Shown: piece after piece, positions 77 to 34,498 of the stretch
Numbering within the stretch: the stretch's first letter is position 1
Layout: the number at the start of each line of letters is the position of its first letter
From: a phage
Direction: 5' to 3' (one strand)
Sequence record: NC_105513.1
DNA: 51,277 bases
Program-made: the position numbers and the translations under genes
The notes under the pieces: generated by a model
Databases searched by the model: none
The model's input: only the letters and a program-made list of their open reading frames with translations
Told to the model about the DNA's origin: nothing

Positions 77-782
77 TTGCGTTTGCTTCGAAGACTGCGC
101 GAGCAAAACCGCGCGGAGTGAGGGAGCGGATCATCTTTGTGCGAGATGATTTTCCGCCAGTTTTGGCCCAGCCTGGATTATCTTTGTCATTCTCTTTCGG
201 CAGGATTAAAGCGCGCTGAGGAATAACAAATCCGTTTCCAGTCCAAAGGCATGTTTTCTTAAAGTAGCGATCCCGCGCCGGAATAATATCAGGAAAGTCG
301 GGATGTTTATCATCTTCCGGAAGATAGCCAGCATAATCGCACGGATGGAACGTATAATCAGGCTTGCGCCATAACGTTGACAGCTTGCCTACAGGATTCT
401 CTATCATGTACGGAACGCCGAAATAATCAGCAATTTGCGCCGCTATTTTGCAAGTGTCGGCGGCCTCATCCTGGAAAGAGGGATTCTCAAGGCGTTTTTT
501 GGACCAATGGCGAGATCCGCTATTTGCAAGGTCAGTGCACGGCGGAAATGCCATAATGAAATCAGGCTTGCCCCAATTTTCAAGTTTTGCGGTATATTTG
601 AATAGCTCATCAATCCACACATTAACGTAAAAAATATTATCATGGATTATGCGCACTGATTGGTAATCTCCATGATCTGCATCATCGTAATTAAAGCAAA
701 TGCATTTATATCCAGCATCAGCCCAATCTTTAACGGCTTTACCAGATCCATCAAACAAAGAGAATATTAAACCTTTATACAT
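72..782 (-). CDS. DNA (cytosine-5)-methyltransferase-like protein
   Basis: 236 aa; ordered motifs FSLFDGSG (FxGxG AdoMet site), FPPC (PC catalytic Cys), IENPVG (ENV); RBS GAGGTG upstream; stop TAG embedded in promoter box. Confidence 0.55.
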   Translation of the reverse strand: MYKGLIFSLFDGSGKAVKDWADAGYKCICFNYDDADHGDYQSVRIIHDNIFYVNVWIDELFKYTAKLENWGKPDFIMAFPPCTDLANSGSRHWSKKRLENPSFQDEAADTCKIAAQIADYFGVPYMIENPVGKLSTLWRKPDYTFHPCDYAGYLPEDDKHPDFPDIIPARDRYFKKTCLWTGNGFVIPQRALILPKENDKDNPGWAKTGGKSSRTKMIRSLTPRGFARAVFEANAK

Positions 783-27750: not shown

Positions 27751-30700
27751 ATGGCTGAAAATATGATAACGGGAAGTAAGGGCGGATCATCAAAACCTTA
27801 TGTTCCGAAAGAGATGGAAGATAACCTGATCTCAATCAACAAAATCAAAATTCTTCTTGCCGTTTCCGATGGCGAGTGCGATCCAGATTTTACACTTCGC
27901 GATCTGTATCTTGATGATGTTCCGGTAATTGCAGGCGACGGAACTGTTAACTACCAGGGTGTGAAAGCTGAATTTCGACCTGGAACGCAGACGCAAGATT
28001 ACATCCAGGGGTTTACTGACACATCAAGCGAAGTGACGCTGGCGCGTGACATTACGACAACAAATCCTTATGTAATTTCCGTAACCAACAAAACATTATC
28101 GGCTATCAGAATCAAAATGCTAATGCCAACAGGCATTAAGCAAGAGGATAACGGCGATCTTGTTGGCGTTAAGGTTACTTATGCTGTTGATATGGCTGTT
28201 GACGGAGACTCTTACAAAGAAGTATTGCGAGACACTATCGAAGGTAAAACGCGATCAGGTTACGACAGAAGCAGAAGGATTGACCTTCCGGCATTTAATG
28301 ATCGCGTATTACTTAGGGTTAGAAGGGTTACGGCAGACAGCACATCTTCTCGTGTTACTGATCTGATTAAACTACAAAGTTACGCTGAGGTTATTGATGC
28401 AAAATTCCGTTACCCTCTGACTGGTCTTGTATACGTTGAATTTGACAGTGAGTTGTTCCCTAACCAGATCCCTAACATTTCAATCAAGAAGAAATGGAAG
28501 TTGATTAATGTTCCGAGCAATTACGATCCGGTAATGCGAGAGTATCACGGTTCATGGGATGGTACGTTCAAAAAAGCGTGGTCGAACAATCCGGCGTGGG
28601 TACTTTATGACATTATCACAAACCAGCGATACGGATTAGATCAGAGAGAGCTTGGTGTGCAGGTTGACAAATGGAGTCTTTACGAAGCGGCGCAATACTG
28701 CGATCAGAAAGTGCCGGACGGAAAAGGCGGTACAGAGCCGCGTTATCTATGCGACGTTGTGATTCAAAGCCAGATTGAGGCTTATCAGCTTATTCGTGAT
28801 ATTTGCTCAATCTTCCGAGGAATGAGCTTTTGGAATGGAGAGAGCTTGTCAATCGTCATTGATAAGCCGCGCGATCCGTCGTACATCTTCACCAATGACA
28901 ACGTTGTTGATGGTGATTTTCAGTACACAACAGCAAGCGAAAAGAGCATGTACACGCAGTGCAACGTGACGTTCGACGACGAACAAAACATGTATCAACA
29001 GGACGTAGAGGGCGTATTCGACACCGAGGCTGCATTGCGCTTTGGATACAATCCGACAAGCATAACAGCGATCGGATGTACACGCAGGAGTGAGGCTAAT
29101 CGGCGCGGTCGATGGATACTAAAAACCAACTTGCGCAGCACTACGGTAAACTTTGCTACTGGACTGGAAGGAATGATCCCATCAATAGGTGATGTGATTG
29201 CTATTGCTGACAACTTTCACAGCAGCAACCTTAAATTAAACCTATCAGGGCGCGTGATGGAAGTTTCCGGCTTGCAGGTGTTCGTTCCGTTTAAGATTGA
29301 CGCGCGACCAGGTGATTTCATTATCATCAACAAACCGGACGGAAAGCCAGTTAAGCGCACAATCTCAAAAGTAAGCGGCGACGGAAAAACCATTGAACTA
29401 AACATTGGGTTTGGGTTTGAAGTTAAACCGGATACAGTTTTTGCAATCGACCGCACTGATATTGCATTGCAGCAATACGTTGTAACGAGTATCGGCAAAG
29501 GTGATGATGATGATGAATTTACATACTCCATCACGGCTGTTGAATATGACCCGAACAAATACGACGAGATTGATTACGGAGTAAACATTGACGACAGGCC
29601 AACTTCAATTGTCCAGCCTGACACAATGGCAGCACCGGAAAACGTGCAAATATCCTCATACTCGCGAATTGTCCAGGGTGCAAGCGTTGAAACAATGGTT
29701 GTGTCGTGGGATAAAGTACCTTACGCATCGCTGTATGAAATGCAATGGCGAAAAGGTGATGGAAACTGGCTGAATACACCACAGACCGCAAACAAAGAAA
29801 TTGAGGTTGAAGGTATTTATTCAGGAAACTACCAGGTAAGGGTTAGATCTGTTTCCGCTTCAGGTTCTACTTCTCCGTGGTCCAGAATTGTGACAGCATC
29901 ACTGACTGGTAAGGTAGGAGAGCCAGGCGCGCCAGTTAACTTAACAGCATCCGACAATGAAGTGTTTGGCATTCGTGTTAAGTGGGGGATGCCAGAAGGG
30001 AGCGGGGACACGGCATACATTGAGCTTCATCAGTCGCCGGATGGAACGGCTGAAAACTCAAGCCTGCTAACGCTGATCCCGTATCCACAATATGAATACT
30101 GGCACGGTACGCTTCCGGCTGGTCATGTTGTATGGTATCGGATCAGGAGCGTGGACAGGATCGGCAACGTTTCCGGTTGGACTGATTTTGTTAGAGGTAT
30201 GGCTTCAGATGATGTGGAGGCTGTTTTAGGAGATATTCTTGATAAGATTTTTGATACTGAAGCAGGTCAGGATCTTAAAGAGAACGCCATTGACAGTGCA
30301 AACAAGATAAAGGACCAGGCGCAAGCAATCATCCAGAATGCTCTTGCTAATGATGCTGATATTAAGTGGACGCGAGTACAAAACGGAAAGAGAAAGGCTG
30401 AATATGGTCACGCTCTTGAGCTTATCGCCACAGAGACTGAGGCGCGAGTTACGCAGATTGAAGAATTGAGGGCGTCAATCGACGAGGATATTGTTTCAAG
30501 CATAAAGACAGTGCAGGAGGCTATCGCCACAGAATCTGAAACGCGAGCAACTCAAATAAACGCTTTGGATTCAAAATTCACAACTGAAATTGACGGCGTA
30601 AAACGCAATACAGCAGCAAGCATTAATCAGGTGAATCAAACAATTGCCAATGAATCAGAGGCGCGAGCGCAGGCCGTTAACGCGCTTGATGCGAAGTTCA

Positions 30701-31329
30701 CAAAGGAGATCGAAGATTTAAACGGAGTCATTAAGACTGAGGTTGAGGCTAACATCTCTGAAGTGAAACAGGCTATCGCTAATGAGACAGAAGCAAGGGT
30801 GCAGGCTGACCAGGCTTTAACAGCTAAATTCGGAGACGTTGAATCTGCATTAGCTCAAAAACTTGATTCGTGGGCTGGCGTGTCATCTGTTGGTGCTAAA
30901 TACTCAATGAAATTGGGGTTAACATACAATGGGCAGAAGTACAGCGCAGGAATGGTAATGCAGCTTTCGCAGAGTTCATCCGGCCTTGTCTCGCAAATCT
31001 TGTTTGACGCGAACAGGTTCGCGATCATGACAAGTTCGACTGGCGGGGTGTATACATTGCCTTTCGTGGTGGAAAATAACCAGGTATTCATTAACAGCCT
31101 GTTAGTTAAAAACGGTTCAATTACAAATGCCATGATCGGTAATTATATTCAGTCGAATAACTTTGTTGCCAATCAGCAGGGTTGGAGGCTGGATAAAAAC
31201 GGCAGATTTGAGAACTACGGTTCTACGTCTGGAGAGGGGGCCATGAAGTTGACCAATGAAACGATAAGTGTACGAGATGCAAACGGGCGCTTGCGTGTTC
31301 AGATTGGTAGGCTTACTGGTACGTGGTAA
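27751..31329 (+). CDS. central tail fibre / host specificity protein (lambda J-like)
   Basis: 1192 aa; FN3-like segments; C-terminal repeated coiled-coil units; position after K/I. Confidence 0.85.
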   Translation: MAENMITGSKGGSSKPYVPKEMEDNLISINKIKILLAVSDGECDPDFTLRDLYLDDVPVIAGDGTVNYQGVKAEFRPGTQTQDYIQGFTDTSSEVTLARDITTTNPYVISVTNKTLSAIRIKMLMPTGIKQEDNGDLVGVKVTYAVDMAVDGDSYKEVLRDTIEGKTRSGYDRSRRIDLPAFNDRVLLRVRRVTADSTSSRVTDLIKLQSYAEVIDAKFRYPLTGLVYVEFDSELFPNQIPNISIKKKWKLINVPSNYDPVMREYHGSWDGTFKKAWSNNPAWVLYDIITNQRYGLDQRELGVQVDKWSLYEAAQYCDQKVPDGKGGTEPRYLCDVVIQSQIEAYQLIRDICSIFRGMSFWNGESLSIVIDKPRDPSYIFTNDNVVDGDFQYTTASEKSMYTQCNVTFDDEQNMYQQDVEGVFDTEAALRFGYNPTSITAIGCTRRSEANRRGRWILKTNLRSTTVNFATGLEGMIPSIGDVIAIADNFHSSNLKLNLSGRVMEVSGLQVFVPFKIDARPGDFIIINKPDGKPVKRTISKVSGDGKTIELNIGFGFEVKPDTVFAIDRTDIALQQYVVTSIGKGDDDDEFTYSITAVEYDPNKYDEIDYGVNIDDRPTSIVQPDTMAAPENVQISSYSRIVQGASVETMVVSWDKVPYASLYEMQWRKGDGNWLNTPQTANKEIEVEGIYSGNYQVRVRSVSASGSTSPWSRIVTASLTGKVGEPGAPVNLTASDNEVFGIRVKWGMPEGSGDTAYIELHQSPDGTAENSSLLTLIPYPQYEYWHGTLPAGHVVWYRIRSVDRIGNVSGWTDFVRGMASDDVEAVLGDILDKIFDTEAGQDLKENAIDSANKIKDQAQAIIQNALANDADIKWTRVQNGKRKAEYGHALELIATETEARVTQIEELRASIDEDIVSSIKTVQEAIATESETRATQINALDSKFTTEIDGVKRNTAASINQVNQTIANESEARAQAVNALDAKFTKEIEDLNGVIKTEVEANISEVKQAIANETEARVQADQALTAKFGDVESALAQKLDSWAGVSSVGAKYSMKLGLTYNGQKYSAGMVMQLSQSSSGLVSQILFDANRFAIMTSSTGGVYTLPFVVENNQVFINSLLVKNGSITNAMIGNYIQSNNFVANQQGWRLDKNGRFENYGSTSGEGAMKLTNETISVRDANGRLRVQIGRLTGTW
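30420..30840 (+). repeat. imperfect tandem repeats in C-terminal region of J-like gene
   Basis: four units starting about 30424, 30523, 30643, 30775 encoding IA-x-E-(T/S)-E-(A/T)-R...NALD-x-KFT-x-EI. Confidence 0.6.
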
Positions 31330-31336
31330 AATCAAA

Positions 31337-31360
31337 GCGGGGCGTTTGCCCCGCATTTAT
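31337..31360 (+). terminator. possible terminator after J-like gene
   Basis: GCGGGGC-GTTT-GCCCCGC then ATTTAT. Confidence 0.45.
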
Positions 31361-31372
31361 GGAGGTTTAATA

Positions 31373-31678
31373 ATGGCTGAATATGGGATCTCAACTTGGG
31401 ATGCAAACGGGAAGTATAACAACTACGGAATCAAGCCAGTTTCCGTTGTTGGTGTCATTAGCCTTGCCGCTGGTCAGACAAGCGGATCGTGGAGCTTTAG
31501 CATTCCAAGTGGTTTTAAGGTTGGGTATGTTGTTTCACTTGATGAAGGTGCCAGGGGAGTTGGAAGGGAAATAGTAGCATCTGGAAACACAATAAGAATT
31601 AGTCCTACATCGTCGGTTGGTGCAAATAGATATTCTTCTTCAAAGTGCGAGTTAGTTGTTTTTCTTGAGAGGGTTTAA
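31373..31678 (+). CDS. hypothetical tail-fibre-associated protein (MAEYG family)
   Basis: 101 aa, RBS GGAGG; begins MAEYGISTWDANGK. Confidence 0.5.
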   Translation: MAEYGISTWDANGKYNNYGIKPVSVVGVISLAAGQTSGSWSFSIPSGFKVGYVVSLDEGARGVGREIVASGNTIRISPTSSVGANRYSSSKCELVVFLERV

Positions 31679-31679
31679 A

Positions 31680-32318
31680 ATGGCTGAGTATGGAGCAATG
31701 TTATCTTTATCAAATGGGAATCCATTTGTCACACCAAAATCAACGCCATTTTGCTTATATGGCAAGTACACTTATTCATCTTCAGGTACTTCTGCCTATC
31801 ATAGTGCAAGCGCAAATATACCAGTAAACCAATCTTATCCATGCATGGCATTTATAAAAACAACAAACACACAGCAGCCAACTGCATTAATAGCTTACAG
31901 GAATGGTGGCAACATTTATGTAAACGGAGGAAATCCATATGGTCAATCATTTACAATGACTGTTTATATATTTGCCATATTCCCTCAAACTCTACCCAAA
32001 TATGGTATGGCTATATGGGATGCAAGCGGCAAGTTGGTTTTAACTAATGAAAGCAGGGTGCTAACAGATCTTGTTACAATTGGTACTCCTGGTTCTTCAG
32101 GTGGAACGAATATAGATCAAACGTTATCTGGTTCTTATGCCGTTTGCCCTTCAAGGCTTGGTGCGGTTATAGGTATGGGCGCTTCTGATATATATACATC
32201 ATGCAGGTATAATGGTTCAAGCACAAGGATAGGTGCAGCAAGGACAACGCCAGGAACAGGTTCTATAACAAATAACGGAAATTCAATAATTGCAATAAAG
32301 ACTGATATTTACGACTAA
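31680..32318 (+). CDS. hypothetical tail-fibre-associated protein (MAEYG family)
   Basis: 212 aa; begins MAEYG and has internal KYGMAIWDASGK repeat of the neighbour's N-terminus; Gly/Ser/Thr/Asn-rich. Confidence 0.5.
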   Translation: MAEYGAMLSLSNGNPFVTPKSTPFCLYGKYTYSSSGTSAYHSASANIPVNQSYPCMAFIKTTNTQQPTALIAYRNGGNIYVNGGNPYGQSFTMTVYIFAIFPQTLPKYGMAIWDASGKLVLTNESRVLTDLVTIGTPGSSGGTNIDQTLSGSYAVCPSRLGAVIGMGASDIYTSCRYNGSSTRIGAARTTPGTGSITNNGNSIIAIKTDIYD

Positions 32319-32320
32319 TG

Positions 32321-32348
32321 AAAAGGGGCTTTCGCCCCTTTATTTTTA
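32321..32348. terminator. bidirectional terminator between convergent genes
   Basis: AAAAGGGGC-TTTC-GCCCCTTTATTTTT, A-run and T-run on either side. Confidence 0.65.
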
Positions 32349-32349
32349 T

Positions 32350-32577
32350 TCACAGACTGCAATCAGCGTTTTTAAAGTTATCAATACTTACCCACTGAAA
32401 ATTAAACGGATAGCCAGCCTTAACAAGAGTGCGGTCGCCAACTCGTTTCACTCCGAAAATAGCAACTGAATACTGCATTCCGCTATTTTCATAAATAGCC
32501 GTGCATTCACGTTTAGGCATATTTGCACATCCAGTCAGTGCAACGGCTGCAATCAAAACGGCGATTAACTTTTTCAT
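32350..32577 (-). CDS. lipoprotein, possible Cor-like superinfection exclusion protein
   Basis: 75 aa; signal peptide with lipobox LTGC; RBS AAGGAG; own promoter box 32634..32651; convergent with tail fibre genes. Confidence 0.55.
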   Translation of the reverse strand: MKKLIAVLIAAVALTGCANMPKRECTAIYENSGMQYSVAIFGVKRVGDRTLVKAGYPFNFQWVSIDNFKNADCSL

Positions 32578-32699: not shown

Positions 32700-33076
32700 T
32701 TAGCTCAAAAAGTGAACAACAATAGAGCGCAATACATACAGATAAATATATACATACATATAAATCAATAAGTTAGTAGTATATATATTCATGTTTGTTC
32801 TTTATTGTTATCTATGTTTTGTGTGATTTTGTGCGTCTGGTGATTTTTCTGTGATTATGCATGTGTCAGTGGTTATGTGTGTCTATATATCTATATCCGG
32901 CGCAAATGAGGGAACAAGAGAACAAAAAGACAACAAAGGTATTTATCAATCACTTACATGTGAATTTTGTTATCCAATTCTCCTAGAACGTTGTTAGAAC
33001 AGAAAAAACAAAATAACTGTTGACTAAACGCATTAAATAGCTAAAATGCAGGCATACCAACCAACGAGGGCAAATC
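32700..33076. repeat. AT/GT-rich non-coding region B, homologous to region A
   Basis: ORF-free; 16-mer AAATCAATAAGTTAGT at 32762..32777; GTGTGATT and GGTGATTTTT segments shared with region A. Confidence 0.6.
33020..33047 (+). promoter_or_regulatory. sigma70-like promoter TTGACT-16-TAAAAT
   Basis: about 30 nt upstream of exonuclease ATG 33077. Confidence 0.5.
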
Positions 33077-34219: not shown

Positions 34220-34498
34220 ATGGAAAACAAACAAGTGTCAGAGGTAGCAGTTCATATCAATAATTTTGCAACTGGCATGGCTATGTTGCTTCGTGATTTT
34301 GTTGCGCCGCTTGATCCAACGGCAGGCGCAGAAGAAATGGAGTACATCAGAAAAGTAATGGATGCAGTCGATAACGTCGTACTTGTTGCAACAATGAGCG
34401 AAGACAACGAGGAAGCAATCAAGGCGGTAAAAGAAAGCTCTGATCGCATGATGGAAAGTCTGATTAAATTACACACCAAAGAAGAAACAAAACATTAA
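34220..34498 (+). CDS. hypothetical acidic protein
   Basis: 92 aa, RBS AAGGAAA. Confidence 0.5.
   Translation: MENKQVSEVAVHINNFATGMAMLLRDFVAPLDPTAGAEEMEYIRKVMDAVDNVVLVATMSEDNEEAIKAVKESSDRMMESLIKLHTKEETKH

Follow-up and report, generated by a model that had tools for sequence, protein, structure and literature searches.

A gene pair behind the gpJ central tail fibre of a Hanrivervirus probably encodes a FhuA-specific receptor-binding head in two polypeptides

Introduction

What do the two short genes lying between the central tail fibre gene and a convergent lipoprotein gene of a T1-like phage encode, and how are they related to each other and to the fibre? We addressed this question in a stretch of phage DNA of 51,277 nucleotides (NC_105513.1), hereafter the window, in which the two genes are designated ORF A and ORF B. 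An earlier reading of the letters alone (the sequence-only reading) had taken them for paralogues placed where receptor-binding or fibre-accessory genes are expected, and had seen in their duplication and divergence a sign of host-range adaptation.

The locus itself is already known: it is the FhuA allele of the "bona fide RBP locus" after gpJ, whose alleles match the receptor (PMC8594841; bioRxiv 10.64898/2026.04.02.716166), and the cassette made of cor plus two genes tracks FhuA use (PMC13164509). The FhuA-type locus is described by Wietzorrek 2006 (as cited), Maffei 2021 and the KanT1 report of 2026; accounts of the locus and its link to FhuA date back to 2006, with fuller ones in 2021-2026, and the discovery value of the present work is modest in this respect. 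The KanT1 authors obtained no Foldseek or HHpred match for the proteins of this locus (PMC13164509), and four RBP families were termed unrelated in a 2026 preprint (bioRxiv 10.64898/2026.04.02.716166). In the literature on the locus, we did not find stated a link of B to a solved RBP, a three-module reading of the split genes or a role for the motif that they share. This cassette decides which outer-membrane protein is used by T1-like phages, Dhillonvirus and many lambda-like phages. In most records, the products of its two genes still bear the label "membrane proteins" or "hypothetical", and correcting this annotation is the first practical use of the analysis.

Results

The genes behind gpJ

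By sequence comparison and taxonomy, the DNA belongs to a T1-like phage of Hanrivervirus, a genus of the Drexlerviridae. Over the 1.35 kb surrounding ORFs A and B, Escherichia phage JLBYU09 is 100% identical; Henu8, herni, egaa and further Hanriverviruses reach 92-97%. The upstream gene, previously called J-like, is indeed a J homologue, and the convergent downstream gene, previously called Cor-like, has the family match and lipobox of a Cor-type lipoprotein (Table 1). In gpJ, PF09327 covers residues 1034-1166 (Pfam), and the protein ends right after this fibre domain without an extra C-terminal domain. ORF A matched phrog_557 (E 2.9e-30) and ORF B phrog_425 (E 7.6e-69). A gene pair of about 100 plus 210-230 aa after gpJ, the family matches and the adjacent cor gene make the locus a member of the FhuA-type cassette.

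Table 1. Features of the gpJ-A-B-cor region, in positions of the window (residues of B for its modules).
Feature	Position	Strand	Basis or remark
gpJ-like central tail fibre	27751-31329	+	PF24801, PF13550, PF09327; phrog_31; 1,192 aa
gpJ C-terminal tip, presumed docking site of A/B	31189..31329	+	two copies of the hairpin-type motif: GWRLDKNGRF, ISVRDANGRLRV
GC-rich stem-loop between gpJ and A, 7 G-C pairs	31337..31354		folding energy
GGAGG ribosome-binding site, 3' of the stem-loop and before A	31361-31365		
ORF A	31373..31678	+	101 aa; stop TAA 31676-31678; phrog_557 (phi80 gp22 / T1 Orf32 / HK022 p24 family)
ORF B	31680..32318	+	212 aa; stop 32316-32318; phrog_425 (T1 Orf31 / HK022 p25 family)
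Modules of B (predicted model)	residues about 1-105 and 106-212		beta-sandwiches, hairpin motif before each
Bidirectional intrinsic terminator, common to the A-B transcript and convergent cor	32322..32341		z -3.8, both strands
Cor-type superinfection-exclusion lipoprotein	32350..32577	-	75 aa; phrog_1119, E 5.3e-29; lipobox LTGC; LPAM_1

The stem-loop between gpJ and A (-16.5 kcal/mol, z -1.35) was no better than shuffled sequences. It may act as a partial terminator that lowers the expression of A and B relative to gpJ; T1 carries an annotated rho-independent terminator at the equivalent position, and in HK75 the stem-loop is absent and J and A abut. A single nucleotide separates the stop of A from the start of B, which suggests translational coupling, and relatives checked show either 1 nt or an overlap. 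The variable cassette described below has its right-hand breakpoint at the terminator behind B.

Three observations on the surroundings and records of this region are reported here for themselves. The intergenic stretch from cor to a recE-like exonuclease gene (32700-32900) is very AT-rich, with runs of ATATAC/ATACAT-type repeats, and could serve as a promoter or regulatory region where the tail and recombination modules meet. Between the exonuclease and Erf genes lies an ORF of 92 aa (34220-34498), whose homologue in the RefSeq record of Henu8 is named "tail length tape measure protein", almost certainly a mis-annotation. Thirteen unannotated GenBank records that bear the name "Campylobacter phage" (MG0656xx) and give Campylobacter jejuni as host match this region of an E. 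coli Hanrivervirus at 96-97% identity; they look like mislabelled or contaminant T1-like coliphages.

A hairpin motif shared by A, B and the gpJ tip

The description of the motif in the sequence-only reading proved accurate, coordinates included. Both ORFs begin with MAEYG, 13 of the 15 nucleotides of these codons being identical, and both contain (I/T)WDA(N/S)GK, as S-TWDANGK at residues 7-14 of A and as KYGMA-IWDASGK at residues 106-118 of B (IWDASGK from 112); a looser form stands at the start of B (MAEYGAMLSLSNGNPF). The richness in Gly, Ser, Thr and Asn also held, with a G+S+T+N fraction of 0.38 in A and 0.41 in B, versus 0.28 in gpJ. The exact MAEYG start is not kept in relatives, which begin with MAYGI and MSYGA (T1) or MAYGF and MADYGI (Klebsiella phage Sushi).

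BLASTP of A against B found nothing beyond the motif (A1-14 vs B105-118, E 5e-4; A1-14 vs B1-14, E 0.21). In profile-profile comparison, A scored 34.1 with the C-terminal half of B (12.0 +/- 2.4 in 100 column shuffles) and 29.1 with its N-terminal half (11.3 +/- 2.6 in 100 column shuffles), the motif raising these scores 7-9 standard deviations over the column-shuffled controls. The clear common element of A and B is a hairpin motif some 14 residues long, and this sharing exceeds chance. The pattern [WRFYL]D[AKS][NSD]G[KRN] occurs five times in the 34,226 aa of six-frame ORFs, and four of these matches fall within 31189-32016 (about 830 nt): two at the C-terminal end of gpJ, one in A and one in B. 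Within each family, the motif comprises the best-conserved residues: G5 is invariant and W9, D10 and G13 are at least 90% conserved in 97 A homologues, while G109 and W113 are invariant in 89 B homologues. The A-family HMM was matched, via the motif, by 23 of the 89 B homologues (best E 1.4e-4).

Two old families rather than a recent duplication

Beyond the motif, the claim that A and B are paralogues could be upheld only in part. The two share the motif, and some 80 columns of A and of the N-terminal half of B are colinear (prob 60%, E 8.7e-5), but whole-length paralogy is weakly supported, the similarity of the remainder being marginal or absent. With the motif removed (first 16 residues), A scored 20.3 with the N-terminal half of B, against 10.3 +/- 2.5 and a maximum of 20.3 in 100 shuffles; profile-profile comparison found no similarity between A so trimmed and the C-terminal half of B, nor between the two halves of B. 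A search of 1.84 billion representative proteins with the A-family profile retrieved some 60 standalone proteins of about 100 aa and some repetitive large proteins, with neither a member of the B family nor an A-B fusion among them.

The pair is not a recent duplication, a reading at odds with its distribution. A and B are two old, distinct families whose fixed pairing recurs in about 345-351 records of phages that belong to several families; a common origin of A and B, if any, predates all carriers. The word "paralogous" may still apply in a deeper sense, as repeated modules. Duplication and divergence as a route of host-range adaptation was not borne out, the two families being old, distinct and always paired in these records.

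Distribution and synteny of the pair

The tblastn searches detected B in 351 phage records and A in 345, or about one fifth of the 1,721 records with a gpJ homologue. The taxa are split almost identically for the two proteins, with some 178 Escherichia, 111 Klebsiella and 22 "Enterobacteria" lambdoids among them. The pair stands behind gpJ in T1, phi80, HK022-like phages, Dhillonvirus and Klebsiella Webervirus. The synteny across relatives called for by the sequence-only reading was indeed found, J-A-B being kept in T1, HK75, Klebsiella phage Sushi, Serratia phage ZDD2 and JakobBernoulli. T1 has the order Orf33-32-31 with terminators annotated at both of the same places and a convergent cor; HK75 has a pair like HK022 p24/p25 with cor on the same strand; in Sushi and ZDD2 the pair stands directly behind gpJ without an adjoining cor.

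The window is thus a member of the T1/phi80/HK022 type of locus and a distinct allele within its genus, with no essential difference from it. A shares 62% identity with T1 Orf32 (global alignment) and 72% with phi80 gp22; for B, the values are about 56-62% with T1 Orf31 and 67% with the HK75 protein. The pair follows gpJ directly, the Cor lipoprotein is the same and the terminators are placed as in T1. In the cryo-EM study of T1, the C-terminus of gpJ is unresolved, and nothing is said on Orf31/32.

Two genomes at the margin of this distribution are worth describing. Klebsiella phage MMBB (Webervirus, MT894005.1, 48578-48753) has a gpJ of about 1,267 aa that ends 175 bp from a convergent depolymerase gene, with no A/B pair and no room for one behind the longer J, from which it would follow that some Weberviruses replace the cassette by a C-terminal extension of J; the virion proteomics of MMBB accordingly has no bearing on A and B. 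In one bacterial contig, an ORF of 139 aa runs without a frame change from a gpJ C-terminus (...VGRLTGCSD) into the start of an A homologue (MAYGIQTWDASGK...), where it is interrupted. A decaying prophage is the probable source, and the case shows how close the reading frames of J and A are in lambdoid phages.

The predicted fold of B and the Oekolampad RBP

With an alignment of 89 sequences, AlphaFold2 predicted B to be an all-beta protein of two sandwiches (pLDDT 91.9, pTM 0.88), least confident at residues 1-20 and 101-130; without the alignment the pLDDT fell to 38 and the prediction was unusable. The fold of this predicted model matches the solved LptD-binding RBP of phage Oekolampad (PDB 9RPT). 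At the sequence level, B matched phrog_1265 (E 2.1e-5, B 38-194 on profile positions 154-303 of 332), as did 7 of the 89 B homologues (best E 5.6e-7). The Oekolampad RBP (RBP_Oeko, 321 aa) is a full-length member of phrog_1265 (E 2e-122) and also belongs to PF20051 (DUF6453). The match of B to phrog_1265 is partial only and does not amount to full-length membership; no Pfam family was found for A or B at E<=1, so neither belongs to PF20051. With hhalign, the alignment of the B family to that of DUF6453 was not significant (prob about 1%).

Other structural searches were less informative. Foldseek of B against the PDB gave nothing at E<=0.001, and its top match, the three-module C-terminal domain of PCSK9 (E about 0.02), was not relied on. 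Against BFVD, 18 matches were obtained (E 1e-7 to 1e-3, TM 0.4-0.6), all to uncharacterised phage proteins of 200-555 aa and none of them informative on function. Phmmer and hmmsearch of A, B and their profiles against the PDB sequences found nothing meaningful.

From the register of the phrog_1265 alignment, residue 1 of B falls at about residue 113-117 of RBP_Oeko; together with the fold match, this register makes residues of about 115-321 in the 321-aa RBP the counterpart of B. The product of the preceding gene, A (101 aa), stands in the place of residues 1-112, and A plus B amount to 313 aa versus 321. With A in the place of the first module, the FhuA-type head would be a split, two-polypeptide version of a three-module RBP: where the Oekolampad type has one chain of about 320 aa with a hairpin at the head of each of its three modules, two polypeptides are encoded here. 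At the profile level, A and the first module of RBP_Oeko showed no significant similarity (prob 1%), and the three modules of RBP_Oeko, compared with each other, with A and with both halves of B, gave no significant score beyond the motif.

The hairpin pattern offers a further point of comparison. RBP_Oeko carries the pattern G-hydrophobic-x-hydrophobic-x-D/N-x-x-G three times, at residue 3 (AGILIDYNDGRP), about residue 122 (AGLLVANSTDFTAI) and about residue 215 (GTGITMTNNQNQVTF). In its cryo-EM structure, the tail-proximal part is very poorly ordered, residues 1-25, 113-142 and 206-234 having been modelled without density (PMC12685063). These segments are exactly the three that bear the motif and correspond, in the register given above, to A 1-25, B 1-25 and B about 103-130; this agreement suggests that the shared motif marks the tail-proximal face of the head.

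The two loci are alike in their position after gpJ and beside a small lipoprotein gene (Rtp45-type, in the Oekolampad / Rtp44 family). They differ in that the Oekolampad RBP is one chain of 321 aa versus 101 + 212 aa here, is encoded on the opposite strand, has LptD as its receptor, goes with a different gpJ tip sequence and shares no Pfam-level membership with A or B. We regard B as a distant homologue of this single-chain RBP, the link being weak at the sequence level and missed by Foldseek. Such weakness agrees with the absence of Foldseek or HHpred matches noted by the KanT1 authors and with the preprint's view of the four RBP families as unrelated.

Conservation of the gpJ tip and of the pair

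The last 60 aa of gpJ are 68-87% identical in T1, HK75, Sushi, FritzSarasin and JakobBernoulli, the Enterobacteriaceae carriers of A and B that were checked, all of which have one type of tip. Identity drops to 41% in Oekolampad, an LptD-type phage whose tip is of another type, and to 37% in ZDD2, a distant Serratia phage. Relative to T1, identity is 83% in the last 60 aa of gpJ and 88% in residues 1-27 of A, compared with 62% over the whole of A, 50% in the N-terminal half of B and 73% in its C-terminal half.

In Warwickvirus FritzSarasin (bas04_0023-0025), an A-like protein of 92 aa (phrog_557, E 4e-20), a B-like protein of 204 aa (phrog_425, E 3e-49) and a Cor-like lipoprotein of 89 aa accompany a gpJ with the same type of tip, and the hairpin motif is kept (YGYAIYDDRGRE; HGIAFYNAHGEM). 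Unlike in the window, the cassette is inverted, with the cor-like, A-like and B-like genes opposite to the gpJ strand (MZ501069.1), and A and B are only 33% and 28% identical to those of the window. A has thus diverged as much as B, with the gpJ tip still 77% identical, and so does not behave as a simple conserved adaptor. According to the literature, this Warwickvirus cassette is probably specific to BtuB rather than FhuA. The KanT1 paper calls the A-like gene absent from such phages; the phrog_557 profile nevertheless finds it in FritzSarasin, at the E value given above.

A variable cassette between conserved flanks

Compared with the congeneric JakobBernoulli, DNA identity is 49-75% in A-B, 78-93% in the last 400 nt of gpJ and 90-97% from about 32300 rightwards (cor, the intergenic region and recE); for the proteins, identity is 96% in Cor, 72% in A and 63% in B. 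This low identity between conserved flanks points to A-B as an island of recombination or diversification, in agreement with published descriptions of the locus (PMC8594841; bioRxiv 10.64898/2026.04.02.716166). Of the proposed host-range adaptation, the part that stands is the hypervariability of the A-B cassette, and the part left unsupported is duplication as its driver.

A second divergent segment relative to JakobBernoulli lies in the coiled-coil part of gpJ (30300-30800), with 57-67% aligned identity in 30300-30599 and 10-25% in 30600-30799. It lies within alpha-helical repeats (ETEARVTQIE / ESETRATQIN / ESEARAQAVN), which suggests variation in the length or repeats of the fibre shaft.

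Discussion

A receptor-binding head docked by hairpins

Taken together, we consider it likely that A and B form a FhuA-specific receptor-binding head on gpJ, in a split three-module form docked by hairpins. The placement among receptor-binding or fibre-accessory genes advanced by the sequence-only reading is indeed supported by the position behind gpJ, the match of the predicted fold of B to a solved RBP, the J-A-B synteny and the literature. In the mechanism that we propose, the head would be attached non-covalently to the distal end of the central fibre, a gpJ trimer. A would provide the first module, a structural role suggested by its register and motif, and B the second and third modules; B would be the FhuA-binding protein, FhuA being its presumed target. 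Each module would open with a short beta-hairpin, (Y/W)G-x-x-x-(W)-D-A-x-G-K, and the three hairpins (A 1-25, B 1-25 and B about 103-130) may fit one asymmetric head onto the three-fold tip of gpJ. The gpJ tip, which ends in two hairpins of the same type, would be their partner, and the variable loops of the sandwiches would contact FhuA at the far end. Cor would be the matching superinfection-exclusion lipoprotein, cognate to the FhuA-type cassette. The drop in conservation from the gpJ tip and the hairpin of A to the bodies of the sandwiches is consistent with such docking.

A similar logic exists in T5. As cited for that phage (PDB 8A8C, 8A60), pb5 is a monomeric FhuA-binding RBP attached non-covalently to the central fibre, its tail-proximal part being disordered in the complex, and Llp is an early lipoprotein that binds FhuA from the periplasm and excludes superinfection. 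Unlike A and B, pb5 consists of one far larger polypeptide (585 aa is the minimum length of an "RBP" in the set of Lewis et al.), and its gene lies in another part of the genome; no sequence match of A or B to pb5 was obtained.

Alternative readings

According to a first alternative, B alone would be the virion RBP, and A a chaperone or attachment factor for B or the gpJ tip, absent from the particle or sub-stoichiometric in it. Such a role would suit a small protein of 101 aa encoded directly after the fibre gene, translationally coupled to B and devoid of a profile link to the first module of the single-chain RBP. However, A has no Pfam match to any tail-fibre assembly family, its PHROG matches being its own family and unknowns; it bears the hairpin motif of both B modules and of the three RBP_Oeko modules, is colinear with the N-terminal half of B over some 80 columns with the score reported above, and completes with B a length of 313 aa in register with the 321-aa RBP. 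We therefore hold this alternative to be rather unlikely.

It could also be that gpJ itself binds FhuA, with a minor or unrelated role for A and B, as was assumed for JLBYU41, a FhuA-dependent Hanrivervirus for which Lewis et al. took the 1,192-aa protein (gpJ) as the RBP (PMC10373560); in lambda and the TolC-type phages, it is indeed the C-terminal domain of J that binds the receptor. Here, however, gpJ has no C-terminal domain beyond PF09327, and its tip shares 77% identity with a Warwickvirus tip, although no Warwickvirus isolate of Lewis et al. uses FhuA as its sole receptor. Moreover, two independent surveys found receptor specificity to follow the locus downstream (PMC8594841; bioRxiv 10.64898/2026.04.02.716166), and we judge this reading very improbable.

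Equally little credit can be given to A and B as membrane or envelope proteins working with Cor in superinfection exclusion, which the PHROG category labels and the constant neighbourhood with cor in FhuA phages might evoke: neither protein has a signal peptide, a lipobox or a hydrophobic span (maximum Kyte-Doolittle mean over 19 residues, 1.05 in A and 0.93 in B), Sushi and ZDD2 keep the pair directly behind gpJ with no cor adjoining, A and B lie on the gpJ strand behind the tail genes with cor on the other strand, and the modelled fold of B matches a solved RBP. Finally, recently duplicated paralogues acting as alternative or redundant adhesins, whose duplication itself would widen host range, are scarcely credible despite the identical MAEYG starts and the shared WDAxGK, given that the two families are old and always paired, that their similarity beyond the motif is marginal or absent, that relatives do not have the exact MAEYG start in common and that A consists of one module and B of two.

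A possible superfamily and its consequences

Returning to the docked, split head as the preferred reading, a wider proposal can be put forward more tentatively: the FhuA-type and probably the BtuB-type pairs, together with the single-chain LptD RBPs, could form one superfamily in which hairpins dock a monomeric head on three gpJ chains. We see this as possible but somewhat doubtful. If true, it would resolve how a trimeric fibre can be matched to a monomeric barrel receptor of different symmetry, overturn the current view of these RBP families as unrelated and provide a rule for swapping heads.

From an applied point of view, the link of B to a solved RBP and the three-hairpin docking hypothesis would make head-swapping and receptor prediction more rational. 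The docking hypothesis also suggests where preferences for FhuA loops are really encoded. Differing dependencies on these loops have been reported for JLBYU41, T1 and others, and they may reside in A-B rather than, as had been assumed, in gpJ.

Structures already deposited may be relevant to this question. The PDB entries 23gd_D, 25vf_A and 9ze4_N correspond to a 1,148-aa "J-like tail tip protein gp24", an F2-pyocin fibre and a fragment of J described as "central straight fibre". The first has the length and name of the gpJ of Oekolampad (bas18_0024); the F2-pyocin fibre aligns with the gpJ of the window over residues 5-1154 (E 1e-219), and the J fragment over residues 916-1188. These structures may already show how heads are attached to the tips of J.
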